Shown here piece after piece: positions 1,740-39,436 of a stretch of DNA of 40,804 bases. This stretch comes from a virus (Duplodnaviria > Heunggongvirae > Uroviricota > Caudoviricetes). The notes beneath the pieces were generated by a model that was given only the letters and a program-made list of their open reading frames with translations, ran no database searches and had not been told where the DNA came from. How positions within the stretch are numbered: the first letter of the stretch is position 1; every line of letters starts with the position of its first letter. The DNA is taken from positions 1 through 40,804 of the IMG/VR virus record IMGVR_UViG_2687453522_000003, one strand, 5' to 3'. The position numbers were made by a program, and so were the translations under genes.

Positions 1740-2954
1740 ATGTATATGTCGGTTTTTCATAACTGGCTGCTTGATATCGCAAGCGGGAATTACTTTATCT
1801 ACATCAAACGCCTTTCTGCAAACGACACAGGCGCAACAGGTGGCCATCAGGTCGGACTTTATATCCCCTCAAATATCGTTGAAAAGCTTTTTCCATCTAT
1901 CAATCATACTCGCGAACTGAACCCTTCAGTCTTCCTTACTGCGCATGTATCATCCCATGATTGCCCTGATACCCAAGCACGCGCAATTTATTACAACAAC
2001 CGTTATTTTGGTAAGACCCGAAACGAAAAAAGAATTACGCGCTGGGGGAGAGGAAGTCCATTACAGAACCCTGAAAATACAGGAGCCCTCACAATTCTTG
2101 CTTTCAGGTTAAACGAACAGAACACTGACTGTTCCGAGGTAGATATATGGGTCTGCGTCAATCCCGATGAAGAGGATCTCATCGAGTCTGCTATTGGCGA
2201 AATCATACCTGGAACCCTAATTTTCGGCCCAGCCGGACAAATTTTGGGCGGATTGTCTCTTCAGCAAACTCCAGTAAATCATAAATATGTTATTCCTGAA
2301 GACTGGAAGAAGCGTTTTCCTTCTGGAAACGAAATTATTCAATATGCTGCTGGCCATTATGCTAAAAACTCCAAGGATCCAGATGAGCAACTGATTGACC
2401 GTCGGCGTGTCGAGTATGATATTTTTCTACTCGTCGAGGAATTACATGTTCTTGATATTATTAAGAAAGGATTCGATTCTGTAGATGAGTTTATTGCATT
2501 AGCCAACTCTGTCAGTAATCGACGTAAATCAAGGGCAGGTAAATCACTTGAACTTCACCTAGAGAAGCTTTTTATCGAGCACGGACTACGGCATTTCTCC
2601 ACTCAGGCAGTTACTGAAGGTAATAAAAAACCAGATTTCCTGTTTCCTTCAGCAGAGGCATATCATAACGCTGAATTTCCTGTAGAAAACTTACGTATGC
2701 TGGCAGTAAAGACCACCTGCAAAGATCGCTGGCGTCAGATACTGAATGAAGCAGATAAAATCCATCAGGTACATTTATTTACACTGCAAGAAGGTGTTTC
2801 TTCAGCACAATACCGAGAAATGAAAGATGCGGGTGTCAGACTCGTTGTACCATCAACTTTACATAAAAAATACCCAGAAGCAGTTAGAGAAGAATTAATA
2901 ACGCTCGGAGCATTCATTACTGAGCTGATAGAACTTTACACTGAACTATCATAG
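1740..2954 (+). CDS. Type II restriction endonuclease, EcoRII-like (predicted CCWGG specificity)
   Basis: 404-aa ORF convergent with a Dcm/M.EcoRII-family methyltransferase; length and arrangement match the EcoRII system as I recall it; second ATG at 1746 has better spacing to the AAGGG ribosome-binding site. Confidence 0.7.
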   Translation: MYMSVFHNWLLDIASGNYFIYIKRLSANDTGATGGHQVGLYIPSNIVEKLFPSINHTRELNPSVFLTAHVSSHDCPDTQARAIYYNNRYFGKTRNEKRITRWGRGSPLQNPENTGALTILAFRLNEQNTDCSEVDIWVCVNPDEEDLIESAIGEIIPGTLIFGPAGQILGGLSLQQTPVNHKYVIPEDWKKRFPSGNEIIQYAAGHYAKNSKDPDEQLIDRRRVEYDIFLLVEELHVLDIIKKGFDSVDEFIALANSVSNRRKSRAGKSLELHLEKLFIEHGLRHFSTQAVTEGNKKPDFLFPSAEAYHNAEFPVENLRMLAVKTTCKDRWRQILNEADKIHQVHLFTLQEGVSSAQYREMKDAGVRLVVPSTLHKKYPEAVREELITLGAFITELIELYTELS

Positions 2955-2988
2955 GCTGACTCCCGGCTTAAAAGGCCGGGAGGTGTTC

Positions 2989-4422
2989 TCAAGGCTGCCC
3001 AGTCTTACCAGCATCAGCAGAAACAGCTTTGAGGATATAGGGTTCCAGAAGTCTGGCAACGGCTTCAAATACTGGCACCACAACGGAGTTACCGAACTGC
3101 CGATATGACTGAGTATCTGAAACCGGAATACGGAATGGTTTCCCTCCAGGTTTTTCAAACCCCATAAGGCGTGCGCACTCTCGGGGAGTCAGCCTGCGTG
3201 GTCGACGAGCCTGGTTACTCTCATTCATAAAGTCAGCCTCTCCCGTTGCCATATCCCAACCACGATCAATAAGAATTTCTGATCCGTCTTTGTGATATCT
3301 GGCAGAAAGTGTGCGTGCAATGCTTTCCTTATTCTCAGGATTGACCAACCCAAAGCCAAAACCATTCCCCTTGGCTGCATGCTTTTTGGCGTAGTTATAA
3401 AGGTACTCCCATAGTTTTGGCGTAAGTATATATTTACTGTCGACTACAGGCTCCAGCAATTCACCAAATGATGGGCGGTGTTCCGGATAAAAACGACTGA
3501 TATCACGCAAGGTAAACCCCTTGTGAATATTCAGATCTCGTCTAAATCCGACCAGAACAATGCGTTCACGATGCTGAGGCAAAAAATGCTTCCCATCGAT
3601 AATCTTTGGATCGTTTTTTCCCATTTCTGCAGCATCGGCAACTTCGTAGCCCAGCTCGTCAAGGGTCTCCATAATGACTTTGAAAGTTTTACCCTTATCA
3701 TGGCTCTTCAGATTTTTGACATTTTCCAGCACAAAAATTGCCGGTTTTTTTGCTCGTATAATACGTGCCACGTCAAAAAAAAGTGTTCCTTGTGCTTCAC
3801 ATTCAAAACCATGCGCACGACCAAGTGAGTTTTTCTTACTAACACCAGCAAGGCTAAATGGCTGGCACGGGAACCCCGCAAGAAGCACATCATGATCCGG
3901 CACATGCTCATCAATATATGCATAAGCATCCGTTTCCAATATATCGGTTTTATCACTCAGCGTGACTTCCCGAATATCGAGATTGAATTTATGCACCTGT
4001 TCATCGTTAAACCAGTTGGCCTTGTATGTACGCACAGCATCTTTATTCCATTCACTGGTAAAAACACACTGGCCTCCAATGGCCTCAAAACCTTTCCGTA
4101 TCCCTCCAATTCCAGCAAATAAGTCAATGAAGCGGAAAGCATATTCCGGATGGTTTGCAGGTGGTTCTGGTAGCATCTTACGCAGAAGAGACTCTTCTAC
4201 TGAAGTCAACGATTTTGGTAAACACTTGCCATTAATCCAGCGGTTAATGGTTTCACGGCTCCACTCATTTCTTCCGACTTTTCTCAGTAATTCAGCCACA
4301 TACTTCTGATCATAGATTTCCAGCACTTTCTCGATAAGCTTTTTATCATTTTCCTGTCGCAGCTTTTCTTCCGCCTCGGCTTCCTTCAGCAGATGCTGTG
4401 CCAACACTTCAAATTCAGACAT
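2989..4422 (-). CDS. DNA-cytosine C5 methyltransferase, Dcm/M.EcoRII family
   Basis: Motifs FAGIGG (motif I), FPCQPFS (catalytic Cys), ENVKNL, QFGNSV; near-colinear with E. coli Dcm from memory; start set at internal ATG (MSEFEV...) preceded by GGAGGA, giving 477 aa; the track ORF extends to 4464. Confidence 0.9.
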
Positions 4423-4729
4423 AATTCCTCCAAGGGGTCTAATGGGTGAAACTTTATCACTCATTTAACCCAGAAGGAAATGTTTTATCTGGATATTTAA
4501 ACAGTGACTGCAACGTAATCTAGCACTGGTGATGCTTTGTTAGGCATAGAGAATCATTCTATATACGACTAATGACAGAAAAACAGCAGACAAGTAGTTT
4601 GTTCATAAATTAACGCATACTACGTGCCTACGGTTTTCGAGACCGGTCCAATCATCAAACGAAACATAAAATTAGCTCACATTATGAGGAAAAGTATCTT
4701 TTTTGTACTATGTAAATTCAAAGGCTTAG

Positions 4730-5551
<822 letters not shown>

Positions 5552-5619
5552 GAAAAAAAGGAGCTATGTCCCCGGTCCGTTACTCACCTAATTTTTGAGT
5601 CTTTAAGTGATAAGCATAA

Positions 5620-5662
5620 ACCGCAGCACGATCTTCTTGCATACGACGTGCTACGGTTTCAT
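5620..5662. repeat. Hairpin repeat copy B, immediately 3' of the invertase gene (probable invertase terminator)
   Basis: AAACCGCAGCACGATCTTCTTGCATACGACGTGCTACGGTTTCA; direct repeat of 1455..1492. Confidence 0.7.
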
Positions 5663-6213
5663 TTATCTCCGACCGGAAACTTCTTATACAGTGTCGATAT
5701 ACCAACATCATAGATGATCGCCACCTTCTGGCAAGGAACGCCTGATGCAATTAATCGTCCGGCCTGCTCCCATTGTTCTGGTGTAAGTTTGGGGCGACGT
5801 CCACCAATTCGTCCCTGTGCGCGAGCTGCTTCCAGTCCAGCTTTTGTTCGTTCAACAATCAGTTCACGCTCCATTTCAGCCAGGGCACCCATCACATGAA
5901 AGAAAAAGCGCCCCATTGGGGTACTGGTATCAATTGAATCCGTCAGACTACGAAAGTTGATGCCTCGTTCACGCAACTCCTCCAGCAGCACGACAAGATG
6001 CCGCATACTGCGCCCCAGTCGGTCCAGTTTCCAGACCACCAGCGTGTCACCTGCCGATAATGTCCTGAGCAGCTTTTTCAGTCCTGGTCTGTCGGACTTT
6101 GTACCGCTTATCTTGTCTTCAAAAATCAGCTCGCATCCTGCACAGTTCAACGCATTACGTTGTAGATCGGTGTTCTGGTCATTTGTTGATACGCGAACAT
6201 AGCCAATAAGCAT
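5659..6213 (-). CDS. Serine DNA invertase (Pin/Gin/Hin/Cin family)
   Basis: MLIGYVRVSTNDQ... catalytic-serine N-terminus and C-terminal HTH; start set at the internal ATG preceded by AGGAGG, giving 184 aa; lies next to the tail-fibre segment. Confidence 0.9.
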   Translation of the reverse strand: MLIGYVRVSTNDQNTDLQRNALNCAGCELIFEDKISGTKSDRPGLKKLLRTLSAGDTLVVWKLDRLGRSMRHLVVLLEELRERGINFRSLTDSIDTSTPMGRFFFHVMGALAEMERELIVERTKAGLEAARAQGRIGGRRPKLTPEQWEQAGRLIASGVPCQKVAIIYDVGISTLYKKFPVGDK

Positions 6214-6242
6214 GATAGCTCCTCCTGACAAAAACAGGAACG

Positions 6243-6749
6243 ATGCCATTTGCGCGCTATTTCTGCATTTTCATAAACGTTGGTTTGGGCGAAACGATAA
6301 ATAAAGCCTCCGGAGCTATGCAGAAATCGGCTAATGGAGCTGATATTTCTGATGTATCAGCCTTCCGAAATGCGCTCCAGTTAGGGACCGCCGCAACACG
6401 AGATGTTGGAGCAGATAATGCCTCGAAGTTACTGGGTTTAGACAGCTTCAGGTCAATGATGTCAGGGAATGGCTACATCTACATTCCATGCATTGCGACG
6501 ACAGGAAACCCGGTGAAACTTATGTTGCAGTGGGGAACGGTGGCAACACAAAAGGGAGCTGATGCTGGATATGCCTTACCATTTGCTTTTCCCTATGCAG
6601 GCTTATTTGCGACCGGAAACCGTGGAACATCTGGCTACAATGCCGCGATGAATGTGCGTATTGCCAGCAGAACGCATATCAGTATTCAGAACTGGTCGCC
6701 ATCCGGAGAGGGCACCGAAGATTGTTGTTTTATCGCGCTGGGGTATTAA
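6243..6749 (+). CDS. Alternative tail-fibre C-terminal (receptor-binding) segment, currently in the silent orientation
   Basis: Contains the LQLGTAATRDVG tail-fibre motif; no independent start context; would fuse to the fibre constant region after inversion. Confidence 0.6.
   Translation: MPFARYFCIFINVGLGETINKASGAMQKSANGADISDVSAFRNALQLGTAATRDVGADNASKLLGLDSFRSMMSGNGYIYIPCIATTGNPVKLMLQWGTVATQKGADAGYALPFAFPYAGLFATGNRGTSGYNAAMNVRIASRTHISIQNWSPSGEGTEDCCFIALGY
6268..6293. other. Candidate invertase crossover site (gix/pix-like), left end of invertible segment
   Basis: TTTTCATAAACGTTGGTTTGGGCGAA has the AAACnnnnGGTTT palindromic core of Gin/Hin-type sites (compared by eye with gix from memory); about 55 bp from the invertase start. 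Confidence 0.45.
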
Positions 6750-6751
6750 GA

Positions 6752-7162
6752 ATGAATAAATTTTATAAAGGCTCTTTCTATCCGAAAGCACTAAAAGAGG
6801 TATATATCAGCGCCGGTTCATGGCCTGAAAATGGCGTTGATGTTGATGATGAAACAATGGCAATTTACACAGGCGTAGCGCCACAAGGCAAAACGCTGGG
6901 GGCTGATAAAAATGGTAATCCTGCGTGGATTGATATCCCGCCACTCTCCGCTGAACAACAGATTATTCAGGCTGAACAGAAAAGAACGGTATTGCGTTCT
7001 ATGGCTGATAAGGAAATAGCCTGGAGACAGGATGCTTTTGATGCGGAAATCGCGACGGCAGAAGAAACCGCCGCGTTATCTGAATGGAAAAAATACCGGG
7101 TCTTGCTGATGCGCGTTGATACAGCAAAACCCGTATGGCCTGTCAATCCGCAGGATATTTAA
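6752..7162 (+). CDS. Tail fibre assembly protein (partner of the silent fibre segment)
   Basis: MNKFYKGSFYP... N-terminus typical of Tfa chaperones; start 3 bp after the upstream stop. Confidence 0.65.
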   Translation: MNKFYKGSFYPKALKEVYISAGSWPENGVDVDDETMAIYTGVAPQGKTLGADKNGNPAWIDIPPLSAEQQIIQAEQKRTVLRSMADKEIAWRQDAFDAEIATAEETAALSEWKKYRVLLMRVDTAKPVWPVNPQDI

Positions 7163-7376
7163 CGGGGGCGTTGTAGGTGGTGACATATTCAAGCAGTTCT
7201 GTTGGATATGTCACCGTTGCTGCATCTCGCTCTACGTTAAATGTATCCGCTCCCCAGATAACACACTCCCTCAAAAATGCCTCCACCTCTGGCGAGACTT
7301 CAACCGCATCATCAGGTCGCTCTTGTTCAGAAACATAAAAACCAACGGTCGTTGGGCTGAAATAGATATTCTCCAT
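7143..7376 (-). CDS. Tail fibre assembly protein, short (77 aa)
   Basis: MENIYFSPTTVGFYVS... Tfa-like N-terminus; follows the active fibre gene; overlaps the opposite-strand tfa tail-to-tail by 20 bp. Confidence 0.55.
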   Translation of the reverse strand: MENIYFSPTTVGFYVSEQERPDDAVEVSPEVEAFLRECVIWGADTFNVERDAATVTYPTELLEYVTTYNAPVKYPAD

Positions 7377-7378
7377 AT

Positions 7379-8104
7379 TTAGTACCCTATTGATTCAAAA
7401 TGCACTGTCGGTATTTCGCCGAGATTGGGTGTCGTATACGCCACAGTGAATCGCGTTCTTGATACGTCAGCGCCAGAATCAGTATCGCGATGCGTTGACA
7501 GTGATTTTCCGGCCATTGTTGTCTGTTTCGAAAACTCTGAGCTCGCTAGTGTTGCCAGCGTTGCTATTTGTGCATTTGGGAATTGTCTGGGGAAATTAAC
7601 CCTGTAGTAATGGGTGTAGTACGTCACCCCACCAAGCACCTGCGAGTTGAAGTTACCAACTGGTGTCAGTGTCACAGTACCAGCCTGTCGAATCATACCA
7701 TTTGGGAGAATATCCCAGGCAGTTTGTCCGTTTCGCGACATACCAAATGCGGACATGTCCGGGAGTTGATTATTACCGGTTCCGACATCCCGTTTTGCCG
7801 CTTCTCCCAATTGAAGGTTTTCGAGAGCCGTTTGCACAGTGCCATCCGATTTGATATCGCCAAACGGATTCTTGCGGCTTAACAGCAGCGCACGAAGTGC
7901 GGTAAGCAGCTGGTCATGCCGCCCTTTCTCCAGGCTGGCACCGGAGGCCTCCACCACGCTACAAAGTTCTTCCTGCAACATGTCAAAGTAGTCATCATCC
8001 AGATCGGTGGCAGGTGTGCCGGTCTGGGGGTTACCACGGGTAAAACCGTTTTTACCCGCGCCGAACTTATCCTTCTGCGCGGTTTTCGTGTCTATACGAT
8101 GCAT
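7379..8104 (-). CDS. Tail fibre protein (constant N-terminal part plus currently expressed variable C-terminal part)
   Basis: [14 protein letters not shown] motif; position after the baseplate genes. Confidence 0.75.
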
Positions 8105-8107
8105 GGA

Positions 8108-8692
8108 TTACTCCGGATATTTAAAAATTACGTAGGTATGCGAAGGGCAGAGTTTGTTAAGCACGCACTCGACAACGGTGTCACCCCAGATACGCAGTGC
8201 GGAATCACAGGGATCACCACATGTCATCCAGGTGGTGTTGGTGGCGGCTGGCATGTTGACCTGCCAGTAATACCGCCATTCCGGCGCATTCACCGCGTCA
8301 GTACAGGCCGATGAGCAGGTGAACGTGCTTTTATCGTATCGCGTGATAGTGGCGTCTGGTCTGCCCAGGGCAGCAAGCTGTGCAAGGTAAAAATCCTCAT
8401 TGATGCCGCCCGCCAGATTAACCTTCGCATCCAGCCGTTGCTGACGCTGGCGAAGGGTCTGTGTCCCTGCGGGAATACATTCATCCGGCAGACCGCACAA
8501 ACGCTCCCAGCGGTTTATCAGTTCAGTGGTGGTGCGCGGATCCAGCTCCCGCATCAGGGCATCCGCACGCTGATGAACACGGGTTAATGACGGTGCCGCA
8601 CCTGCAATCGCCGGATCGCTGGCTGACCACGCCGGACCGGGCGGCAGCAGTGCCGACAACAGACGGATGTAATCATCGTTTGTCACGTCCAT
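8108..8692 (-). CDS. Tail/baseplate protein (Mu gp48-like, DUF2313-type)
   Basis: Position between baseplate J and tail fibre; family assignment from memory. Confidence 0.55.
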
Positions 8693-9741
8693 GAAATCGT
8701 CCCCAGAACCGCCAGTTCATTTTTTGCAATGGAGATATTGTCCGCCGGTGCAAGCAACTGATGGCTGTATTCCCCGTTCGCACCGGAAATCGCTTCACTG
8801 ATACGTGACACCTTCAGTTCTCCCTGCGGATAACCATCACGCAGCAGGAACGAACGCAACTCGGCGGTGATGGCAGCCCGTATTTCCGGTGTGTCCGGCG
8901 TCACGCGGATATGAAAATCCACTTTATGCGCCACCGGCCTGAACACATACAAATCAGAGCCTGCCACCGGGGCCAGTGGCCCGATATGTTGTCTTGCCGC
9001 CGTTTCCGTTGATTCTTCCGGAATGGGATTAATCAGGTCACTGCCGGCAATCATCACACCGACAGTTCCCGTTCCCATCCAGTGACGGTATGTCCATGCG
9101 CGGGTAATGCCGGGCACTTCTTTAGCCCAGACGACATAGTCCCCGTCAGCCCCGCCCTGCGGCGTCCAGTAATACCGCTCAATGACGCGGGCGCGCCACG
9201 TTTCCAGATCTTCAGTATCGAATCCGCCAGTCAGGGTATCTGCAACACCGGAAGACGGCAGACCATTCACCGGCGTGACCAGGATTAATGCCGTACCGTC
9301 GTCAGCGTTACCGACCGCGCCTGCACTTGAGCAGGCGATCGGCACGCGCAGGACACCACCGGAGCTGGTTGCATCAGCAGTTGCCGTGTACTTAACCAGG
9401 TCATCGCGCTGAATCACGCTCCCAGCGGTCACCTTCAGGCCATCGCTGACACCTTCCCAGCGCATATACCCGCTGGCAGCCGTGGCCCCCTTGCGCGGAC
9501 ACCGTTTCATCGCAGCATGTCGCGCCAGCCAGGACTCATCGCACAGGTCAGGCAGCATGTTCATTGCCAGATAATCGATGTAACCGTAAACCGTATGCAG
9601 CGCCGCCGCATACACCTTTGCCCGCACGTCTTCATCCATGCGCCGGAGCGTGTCGCTGACGTCCAGCCTGGCGAATAAATCGTTACGGAGCATACTGATA
9701 TTTTCTGCCAGCGTCGGGCGCTGAAATTCACTGTCCGCCAT
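8683..9741 (-). CDS. Baseplate J-like protein (Mu gp47-like)
   Basis: Size (352 aa) and position in the baseplate cluster. Confidence 0.7.
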
Positions 9742-25157: not shown

Positions 25158-25508
25158 TTACTTAATCCGTTCACGGGCCGTCTTCGCCTTATGACACGGC
25201 CAGCACAGACTCTGTAGGTTACTGTCTGCATCGGTGCCGCCATGCGCTTTAGGGATGATGTGGTCAACGGTTTTCGCCTCGCGCACCACACCGGCACGCA
25301 GGCACAACTGGCACAGGCCTTTGTCACGCTTCAGCACACGCGCGCGGATAACGTCCCACTTCGAACCATAACCGCGCTGATGACGGGACTGGCCAGACTT
25401 GTATTGCTTCCAGCCTTCGCTTTTGTGGCTTTCGCAGTAGCCTGATGGGTCAGTCGTGGTATGGCGGCAGCCGCGAACGCGGCAGGCTTTTGGGGTTCGT
25501 GGAGGCAT
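25158..25508 (-). CDS. HNH endonuclease (packaging-associated)
   Basis: Cys pairs plus DHIIP...HGG...N...CWPCH motif; adjacent to terminase as in HK97-type cos phages. Confidence 0.85.
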   Translation of the reverse strand: MPPRTPKACRVRGCRHTTTDPSGYCESHKSEGWKQYKSGQSRHQRGYGSKWDVIRARVLKRDKGLCQLCLRAGVVREAKTVDHIIPKAHGGTDADSNLQSLCWPCHKAKTARERIK

Positions 25509-39360: not shown

Positions 39361-39436
39361 TGGTGCCGATAATAGGAGTCGAACCTACGACCTTCGCATT
39401 ACGAATGCGCTGCTCTACCAACTGAGCTATATCGGC
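39361..39436 (-). tRNA. thrW: tRNA-Thr (anticodon CGU), thrW-type; prophage attachment site at its 3' end
   Basis: Reverse complement reads GCCGATATAGCTCAGTTGGTAGAGCAGCGCATTCGTAATGCGAAGGTCGTAGGTTCGACTCCTATTATCGGCACCA. Confidence 0.9.

Follow-up and report, generated by a model that had tools for sequence, protein, structure and literature searches.

The window (the whole 40,804-nucleotide stretch of caudoviral DNA that was analysed) is a complete prophage of the SfV/e14 family at thrW, and a near-identical copy is present in E. coli CRE1493. As context, ymfQ (8108–8692, minus strand), which encodes a Mu gp48-like baseplate protein (Pfam Phage_Mu_Gp48; RefSeq ymfQ), lies directly upstream of the tail-fibre gene stf and shows the latter to be the last gene of the tail operon. 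Four blocks follow one another along the window: pin (5659–6213, minus strand), a silent fibre tip with its tfa gene (6282–7162, plus strand), a 77-aa ORF with the expressed fibre tip (7143–7813, minus strand) and the constant N-terminal part of the fibre (7816–8104, minus strand). The two middle blocks make up a segment of 1,532 bp between core dinucleotides (6282–7813), a cassette that is seen inverted in relatives.

The pin gene encodes a serine DNA invertase of 184 aa, an orthologue of K-12 PinE according to RefSeq (pinE) and to a full-length alignment in which 174 of 184 residues (95%) are identical. The protein contains the Pfam domains Resolvase (E 2e-51) and HTH_7 (E 4e-12) and matches PHROG 125 (DNA invertase) with an E of 2e-96, so a small serine recombinase with a catalytic N-terminus and a C-terminal helix-turn-helix adjoins the segment. 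Pin retains the catalytic Ser in its RVS motif, and the PinE alignment shows conservation of the Fis-contact signature residues Q150, R153 and L154 and of the basic residues K46, K47 and R50, which are equivalent to Q151, R154 and L155 and to residues 47, 48 and 51 of Hin (PMC3798978). The ATG at 6249 in the ORF-finder list belongs to an upstream extension of pin.

A putative Fis-dependent recombinational enhancer may be located in the 5′ part of pin (6106–6168, minus strand; pin nt 46–108), where two Fis-like 15-mers are centred at nt 53 and 101, with a spacing of 48 bp. The motif is very degenerate, and a scan for it (G-N13-C, AT-rich centre, 48-bp spacing) returned several pairs in each of the invertase genes and has no diagnostic value. 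The two 15-mers align with a G..C pair at the same positions in Mu gin and are 100% identical to K-12 pinE. The proximal one lies ~120 bp from the centre of the pin-side crossover site; in Salmonella Hin the corresponding distance is ~100 bp (PMC3798978). A simple scan of the region upstream of pin detected no sigma-70-like promoter, and a promoter and terminator scan near pin and the crossover sites gave nothing above the shuffled expectation.

The expressed fibre gene, stf (7379–8104, minus strand), encodes a protein of 241 aa that matches phrog_1396 (tail fibre, E 6e-64) and Gp53-like_C. It is composed of a constant N-terminal part (7816–8104, aa 1–96), which agrees with K-12 StfP in every residue as far as the crossover site (...TALENL), and a variable C-terminal part (7379–7813). 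The silent alternative C-terminus (6243–6749, plus strand; variable part 6282–6749) carries LQLGTAATRDVG. It also matches Gp53-like_C, which bears out the earlier note's observation of two opposed fibre C-termini with a shared motif. The silent tip can also be read as a free-standing ORF of 168 aa that starts at an ATG in the pin-site spacer (MPFARYFCIFINVGLGE...) and whose N-terminus is homologous to that of K-12 StfE, MPFACYFFIFINVGLGE. In-silico inversion places the silent tip in frame with the constant part and yields an open fibre of 252 aa, and 248 of these 252 residues match the expressed fibre of a 98%-identical prophage in EC7. The constant N-terminus is outside the segment, while the alternative C-termini and their accessory genes are inside it, with both tips in frame.

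The genes downstream of the two tips converge and overlap by 20 bp (7143–7162), as had been noted before. It had also been proposed that each tip is followed by its own tfa gene, which proved correct for one of them only. In the silent cassette, tfa (6752–7162, plus strand) encodes a tail-fibre assembly protein of 136 aa with hits to Caudo_TAP (E 2e-31) and phrog_188 (E 4e-42). The 77-aa ORF downstream of the expressed fibre (7143–7376, minus strand) is Tfa-like at its N-terminus only: residues 1–31 match phrog_188 (E 9e-5) and residues 5–28 match the Tfa encoded by SfV orf22 (E 2e-5). It had no match in Pfam (E up to 0.01) or NCBIfam, and its similarity to K-12 TfaE and to the neighbouring Tfa was not significant; the 136-aa neighbour belongs to Caudo_TAP, whose profile includes the conserved C-terminal region, whereas the 77-aa ORF does not. 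The ORF corresponds to RefSeq WP_001340317.1 and is found behind a QLGE-type tip also in CRE1493 and at three other loci (L003, L007 and L009).

The two crossover sites

The pin-proximal site (6268–6293, plus strand) consists of the outer half TTTTCATAAACG, a TT core at 6280–6281 and the inner half GGTTTGGGCGAA. It is the top consensus match in the entire window, with 17/24 positions and as the sole position scoring at least 16, and it is identical to the pin-side site of K-12 e14 at 25 of 26 bases, in agreement with the position and clean core given for it in the earlier note.

The fibre-gene site (7802–7827, minus strand) was located by homology to K-12 and SfV and is made up of CTCTCGAAAACC (outer), a TT core at 7814–7815 and CAATTGGGAGAA (inner). 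On the plus strand it reads TTCTCCCAATTG-AA-GGTTTTCGAGAG, and it encodes L-E-N-L-Q-L-G-E. It is identical at 23 of 26 bases to both the stfP site of K-12 e14 and the orf21 site of SfV (K-12 site sequences were taken from the K-12 genome and PMC12529663), including the whole outer half and the TT core. The differences are confined to three core-adjacent bases, GGT to CAA, which give NLQLGE instead of NLGLGE, so the inner half is the natural variant CAATTGGGAGAA and not the canonical GGTTTGGGAGAA. Positions 4–12 of the variant half-site are unchanged, as are the positions that Hin contacts through its helix-turn-helix domain and minor-groove arm. The window thus has two inverted 26-bp sites with an identical 2-bp core and imperfect half-sites, one inner half being the CAA variant. 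An origin of the QLGE tip through a deletion between NLGLGE and a downstream ALQLGE motif was considered and rejected: in SfV, NLGLGE runs directly into AAKRDIG, and the change is therefore a single codon swap, GGT to CAA.

Because the three core-adjacent bases differ, with inner halves CAATTGGGAGAA on the fibre side and GGTTTGGGCGAA on the pin side, identity between the two sites is limited to 11 of 16 bases, whereas K-12 has a perfect 16-bp inverted repeat (PMC12529663). With so little shared, repeat finding is the wrong tool for these sites, and a generic inverted-repeat search of 5500–8800 found no repeat flanking the segment. The fibre-gene site is also not separable by consensus score, with seven window positions at 15/24, and its identification requires the K-12 and SfV homology together with natural junctions. 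The earlier note had placed this crossover at 7860–7893, which would make the invertible segment ~50–70 bp longer. CCAAACGGATTCTTGCGG is indeed present at 7860–7877, and a half-site-like CCAAACGG string occurs there; however, no more than 10 of 24 consensus positions are matched in this region, a score expected by chance and equalled or exceeded at ~2,400 other window positions. All natural recombinant junctions map to the TT at 7814–7815, the homologous site of K-12 and SfV aligns to 7802–7827, about 45–60 bp away, and BLAST mosaic breakpoints fall at 7785–7826, 7826 being the last position covered by hits to P2-like prophages and ~7785 the first covered by hits to SfV-like phages. A crossover at 7860–7893 is almost certainly wrong.

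Comparison with known inversion systems

The P-segment of K-12 e14 shares with the window the gene order and orientation (ymfQ-stfP-tfaP-tfaE-stfE-pinE), outer half-sites and TT core that are identical, a fibre that is identical up to the crossover, and an ATG-initiated 'StfE-type' ORF that starts in the pin-site spacer. The two differ in both variable cassettes, the window having gp53-like C-terminal tips and the 77-aa ORF in place of one Tfa, in the inner half-sites and in the length of the segment, which is 1,797 bp in K-12. In addition, the e14 prophage is defective, whereas that of the window is complete. The Mu G segment with Gin, the P1 C segment with Cin and the Salmonella H segment with Hin are similar in recombinase family, in their 26-bp sites with a 2-bp core (PMC3798978) and in having the recombinase gene next to the segment. 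Mu and P1 also combine a constant fibre N-terminus with alternative C-termini and alternative chaperones. All these systems differ from that of the window in site sequences, segment size and fibre families, and Hin switches a promoter, not a fibre tip. Shigella phage SfV has a constant fibre part and baseplate genes that are ~96% identical to those of the window, and its orf21/orf22 (short tail fibre and Tfa) include the canonical site CTCTCGAAAACC-TT-GGTTTGGGAGAA followed by AAKRDIG; unlike the window, it lacks an invertase and a second cassette and therefore has a fixed fibre tip.

We therefore regard the locus as a probable (roughly 0.8) Pin site-specific inversion switch of the Hin/Gin/Cin/Pin family and of the e14 P-segment type, positioned at the end of the tail operon. 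This upholds the earlier proposal of an invertase-driven switch that swaps the fibre C-terminus together with an accessory gene, considering the e14 P-segment architecture, the shared outer half-sites and the 95% identity of Pin to PinE. It is an element of an already known kind, known from E. coli prophage e14, with a textbook mechanism and in a well-sampled species.

According to this model, Pin dimers would bind the two inverted 26-bp sites at 6268–6293 and 7802–7827, and a Fis-bound enhancer in the 5′ part of pin would probably join them to form the invertasome. Both sites would then presumably be cut at the shared central TT, and one 180-degree subunit rotation followed by religation would flip the segment 6282–7813 (1,532 bp), while the constant fibre N-terminus (aa 1–96) would stay in place. 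In the present orientation, the constant part is fused to the QLGE-type receptor-binding tip of 145 aa, and the accessory ORF of 77 aa comes next. Inversion would instead bring the alternative tip of 156 aa in frame behind the constant part, followed by a classical Tfa chaperone, and would thus change the host range of the virion.

Orientation of the cassette in related genomes

Inversion at the K-12 e14 sites has been shown experimentally (PMC4272514; PMC12529663), and among 562 genomes, 33% have the canonical e14 segment in the inverted state (PMC12529663). For the sites of the window, E. coli TL-14 (L002) offers a related case: window positions 6280–7820 are present there with 97.6% identity and lie the other way round with respect to pin. 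The pin-side junction has precisely the predicted sequence, TTTTCATAAACG-TT-CAATTGGGAGAA; at the fibre-side junction, the reciprocal inner half, GGTTTGGGCGAA, is combined with another outer half-site. P2-like E. coli prophages, for example those of 19KM1863, H32 and EM06-18-14, contain the same 1,532-bp cassette in both orientations, with 94–98% identity and the same inner half-sites, 77-aa ORF and Tfa. These prophages differ from the window in that the cassette belongs to a long P2 H-type fibre, in their outer half-site (TTCTC[GA]CATACC) and in Pin, which has 188 aa and ~85% identity to that of the window; inversion of the CAATTG/GGTTTGGGCGAA pair has accordingly been demonstrated with a related Pin and different outer half-sites. 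In the prophage of EM06-18-14, Pin (188 aa) is intact and the two junctions are those of the flipped state. When its 1,532-bp segment was re-inverted in silico exactly at the central TT, the resulting 3,535 nt aligned to H32 as a single uninterrupted match, with 100.0% identity and 100% coverage, and the inner half-sites at both loci match those of the window. Among complete genomes, the P2-like cassette is in one orientation in 47 and in the other in 15 (24% flipped), with a bias toward the orientation seen in the window, although these genomes are not independent events.

In IMG/VR, the non-canonical CAATTG half-site is joined to an outer half of the fibre side (...ACC) in 34 contigs and to one of the pin side (...AAACG) in 10, and more than 20 different outer halves occur next to it. 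It is also present at both ends of some invertible segments (L003 and L017). All six complete genomes with the exact prophage arrangement of the window have the same orientation, but since they represent only about three lineages, this comparison is without power either way. No copy of the window's prophage with its own cassette flipped was found in the genome collection searched; three genomes in which the constant part is joined to the silent tip have a different cassette, or none, beside pin.

The earlier note had suggested that the switch may be slow or locked in its present orientation, the fibre-side site having kept only one good half-site. The comparative data point the other way, given that the same inner half-sites flank the same 1,532-bp cassette in both orientations; from the 100.0%-identical flipped loci and the 47 versus 15 genomes, slow or locked switching is therefore not supported. 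An inner half-site that is non-canonical at three core-adjacent bases and sites that match at 11/16 bases would fit such a state, as would the uniform orientation in 6/6 genomes and the 47:15 bias, but half-site positions 4–12 are intact, otherwise identical loci differ by inversion alone and the exact predicted pin-side junction occurs in TL-14. Moreover, CAATTG is found at both ends of some segments and with more than 20 outer halves, and the proportion of flipped P2-like copies (24%) is similar to that reported for the canonical e14 segment (33%; PMC12529663). We thus consider a slow or locked switch unlikely. The right site looks able to recombine, not dead, and the variant inner half-site CAATTGGGAGAA is, as judged from these natural junctions, proficient for recombination; the switch is probably also active in the window's own lysogen.

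It would also be conceivable that the sites are competent but that the switch is a fossil in this lysogen, with the resident Pin not made or the enhancer unusable, so that flipping would need Pin-like invertases acting in trans. In K-12, the heterologous PinQ of Qin drives e14 inversion more strongly than PinE (PMC12529663), and four places on the CRE1493 chromosome match the query, so other related prophage loci do exist there. The result of the promoter scan upstream of pin and the truncated or frameshifted pin genes of relatives such as TL-14 and PEC178 would be compatible with a fossil as well. Nevertheless, the pin ORF of the window is intact, its product shares 95% of its residues with K-12 PinE, which is functional, the Fis-contact residues and aligned enhancer positions are conserved, and deletion of pinE locks the segment in K-12 (PMC12529663), which makes a fossil switch very improbable.

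Consequences for the prophage and its lysogens

In K-12, inversion in e14 creates a chimeric free fibre tip, StfE2, that blocks adsorption of phage T2 (PMC12529663). It is a tentative and rather doubtful idea that the switch of the window has a comparable second output, in which the free tip made by the lysogen would be toggled, and with it the receptor-masking (superinfection-exclusion) specificity, while CAATTG might bias the equilibrium (47:15). If so, each flip would change the receptor-binding tip that the lysogen makes in free form from the pin-proximal, ATG-initiated ORF (6243–6749, the StfE homologue).

The corrected anatomy is that of an intact switch, with the right crossover site 45–60 bp from its earlier placement. 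The result also shows that enzymes of the Pin family accept an exchange of three bases immediately beside the cleavage core. The variant CAATTGGGAGAA occurs widely and undergoes recombination in nature, which makes the working consensus used to find invertase sites in fibre genes slightly broader. The virions released by lysogens of this complete prophage are expected to be of two kinds, which differ in the receptor-binding tip.

The prophage and its fibre segment

Over its 40.8 kb, the window is identical to the genome of E. coli CRE1493 (NZ_CP019071) except for a single mismatch and an indel of one base. It is a complete prophage of the SfV/e14 family, integrated at tRNA-Thr beside proA (thrW locus), with integrase, repressor, Q, lysis, terminase, portal, HK97-type capsid, Mu-type contractile tail and baseplate genes. 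The attachment site (39361–39436, minus strand), at tRNA-Thr next to proA, and an HNH endonuclease gene (25158–25508, minus strand) adjoining the small terminase gene are both typical of this phage group. The tail operon lies on the minus strand, with ymfQ (8108–8692), the 241-aa fibre gene stf (7379–8104) and a 77-aa ORF (7143–7376); these are followed on the plus strand by a convergent tfa gene encoding a 136-aa Caudo_TAP protein (6752–7162) and a second fibre C-terminus (6243–6749), and on the minus strand by pin, which encodes a serine invertase of 184 aa (5659–6213).

The K-12 e14 P region has the same gene order (ymfQ-stfP-tfaP-tfaE-stfE-pinE), the window invertase shares 95% identity with PinE along its entire length, and the window fibre does not diverge from StfP before the crossover site (...TALENL). 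Flipping the segment in silico fuses the constant 96 fibre residues to the alternative tip without a break in the reading frame, and the predicted 252-aa fibre agrees at 248 residues with the fibre expressed from the prophage of strain EC7, which is 98% identical. The gene order, the relationship to PinE and the in-frame flipped fibre all uphold the earlier note's general reading of an invertase-driven fibre switch. The invertase, the two opposed tips (both with the motif described there, LQLGTAATRDVG in one of them) and the 20 bp shared by the convergent genes, at 7143–7162, were likewise found.

The proposal that each tip has its own tfa gene stands for 6752–7162 (Caudo_TAP) and fails for the 77-aa ORF, which we rejected as a Caudo_TAP protein, its resemblance to Tfa proteins being confined to the first ~30 residues. 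This ORF corresponds to RefSeq WP_001340317.1, a hypothetical protein by annotation, and lacks the Caudo_TAP part. It always follows a QLGE-type fibre tip, in the window, in strains TL-14 (near-identical protein WP_001619155.1) and PEC178 and in two further loci (L007 and L009), and may serve this gp53-like tip in particular, as a minimal chaperone or an accessory protein.

Between pin and the prophage end lies a cargo region (1740–5551) with a type II restriction endonuclease ORF (1740–2954, plus strand), a Dcm-like C5 methyltransferase (2989–4464, minus strand) and a LEM-3-like GIY-YIG protein (4775–5551, plus strand). The EC7 prophage instead carries, beyond the GIY-YIG gene, a retron Ec67-type reverse transcriptase (7759–8800 of its locus), and the region looks like a variable defence-gene slot. 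The sole indel relative to CRE1493 falls here, in a homopolymer at 5522–5529 (A7 in the window, A8 in CRE1493), and displaces the 3' end of the GIY-YIG gene: the ORF stops at 5551 here and at 5598 in CRE1493. Either a sequencing error or a genuine frameshift could account for it.

The crossover sites

The pin-proximal site lies where the earlier note placed it, at 6268–6293 (TTTTCATAAACG-TT-GGTTTGGGCGAA); no other position in the window fits the invertase-site consensus as well (17/24), and it is identical to the K-12 pin-proximal site at 25 of 26 positions. The right site proposed at 7860–7893 reaches at most 10/24 against the consensus, which is the chance level in the window. As read from the K-12 genome, the e14 sites are CTCTCGAAAACC-TT-GGTTTGGGAGAA in stfP and TTCTCCCAAACC-AA-CGTTTATGAAAA on the pinE side, and both contain the 16-bp inverted repeats mapped experimentally as the inversion points (PMC12529663). 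We located the right site at 7802–7827 (minus strand; CTCTCGAAAACC-TT-CAATTGGGAGAA), 23/26 identical to the stfP site. The outer half-site and TT core are those of K-12, and the three core-adjacent bases are changed from GGT to CAA, so that NLQLGE is encoded instead of NLGLGE.

The mosaic boundaries in BLAST matches fit this position, with P2-like prophages matching up to 7826 and SfV-like phages from ~7785. The TT cores (6280–6281 and 7814–7815) bound a segment of 1,532 bp. Of the 16 bases that make a perfect inverted repeat in K-12, the two sites have only 11 in common, and for this reason a repeat-finder search over 5500–8800 turned up no inverted repeat on either side of the segment.

A deletion was considered as the origin of the NLQLGE variant and rejected: in phage SfV orf21, NLGLGE at a canonical site runs straight into AAKRDIG, which makes the window change a single codon swap. 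This SfV site (~2518–2543 of its locus) is a 26-bp pix-type site, CTCTCGAAAACC-TT-GGTTTGGGAGAA, within the fibre gene of a phage that has neither an invertase nor a second cassette, and it is perhaps a fossil, perhaps a site on which trans-acting invertases could work.

Recombination at the variant half-site

Serine invertases need recombinase binding and identical cores, extended homology being dispensable. In the related Hin-hix system, the helix-turn-helix domain touches the outer GA(T/G)AA, and the arm reaches into the minor groove at the A/T tract. The right site keeps positions 4–12 of the half-site unchanged, and by analogy these contacts would be kept.

We assessed the function of the variant by comparison with other genomes. 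In E. coli TL-14, window positions 6280–7820 recur with 97.6% identity in the opposite orientation with respect to pin; the junction on the pin side, TTTTCATAAACG-TT-CAATTGGGAGAA, is exactly the one predicted, and the fibre-side junction has the reciprocal inner (segment-side) half GGTTTGGGCGAA on a different outer half-site. P2-like prophages carry the same cassette and inner half-sites beside an intact 188-aa Pin, and among complete genomes the in-silico flipped version of this locus matches 15 and the unflipped version 47. We re-inverted in silico precisely the 1,532 bp that lie between the cores in the flipped locus of strain EM06-18-14, and the 3,535 nt obtained matched strain H32 in one piece, with full coverage and 100.0% identity; the two loci thus differ by inversion alone. 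Among IMG/VR viral contigs, 34 have CAATTGGGAGAA attached to a fibre-side outer half and 10 to a pin-side one, with >20 different outer halves. The flipped fraction of the P2-like cassette (~24%) is near the 33% of the canonical e14 segment (PMC12529663). Together, the flipped fraction, the identity after re-inversion and the TL-14 and IMG/VR junctions show that CAATTGGGAGAA is a working natural allele. The suggestion that the switch is slow or locked is not supported, given the same inner half-sites in both orientations (47 and 15 genomes; the H32/EM06-18-14 pair). The right site is degenerate in that it shares only 11 of the 16 repeat bases with the left site and has a variant inner half, but it lies at 7802–7827, and the variant inner half recombines in other genomes.

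In TL-14, pin is cut down to 123 nt (3513–3635 of its locus; similar matches in NDM3-6 and strain 167), and the flipped cassette belongs to a side tail fibre gene of lambdoid type that carries a pseudogene annotation of its own; the copy in this lineage looks genuinely locked and decaying. The CAATTGGGAGAA variant is the inner half-site at both segment ends in PEC178 (3871–3896 and 5287–5312 of its locus), where the adjoining recombinase gene is frameshifted, and in a further locus with an invertible segment (L017).

Probable activity in the window's own prophage

The six complete genomes with the window's arrangement (~3 lineages) all have one orientation, and no flipped version of the prophage was seen among the genomes searched. 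The flips in P2-like loci involve a Pin ~85% identical to that of the window and different outer half-sites, whereas the outer half-sites used by PinE in K-12 e14 are exactly those of the window. Within pin, two Fis-like 15-mers at nt 53 and 101, spaced by 48 bp, line up with Mu gin and do not differ from their K-12 pinE counterparts; they form a putative Fis enhancer in the 5' part of the gene, and the residues proposed in Hin to contact Fis and the enhancer are conserved. From sequence, we infer switching activity in this prophage. The e14 segment of K-12 can also be acted on in trans by invertases other than its own (PMC12529663).

The silent cassette (6243–6749, plus strand) is also readable as a 168-aa ORF with its ATG in the pin-site spacer (MPFARYFCIFINVGLGE...), its start homologous to that of K-12 StfE. 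In K-12, StfE2, the inversion-generated chimera of this ORF, has been reported to block T2 adsorption (PMC12529663). By analogy, the ATG-initiated pin-side ORF may be a switchable receptor-masking protein of the lysogen.

We conclude that the window carries a real and intact switch belonging to a well-known type, the e14/Pin system, which was described in the 1980s and has recently been re-examined (PMC4272514; PMC12529663). To this it adds only a new combination of cassettes and a half-site variant that is tolerated.
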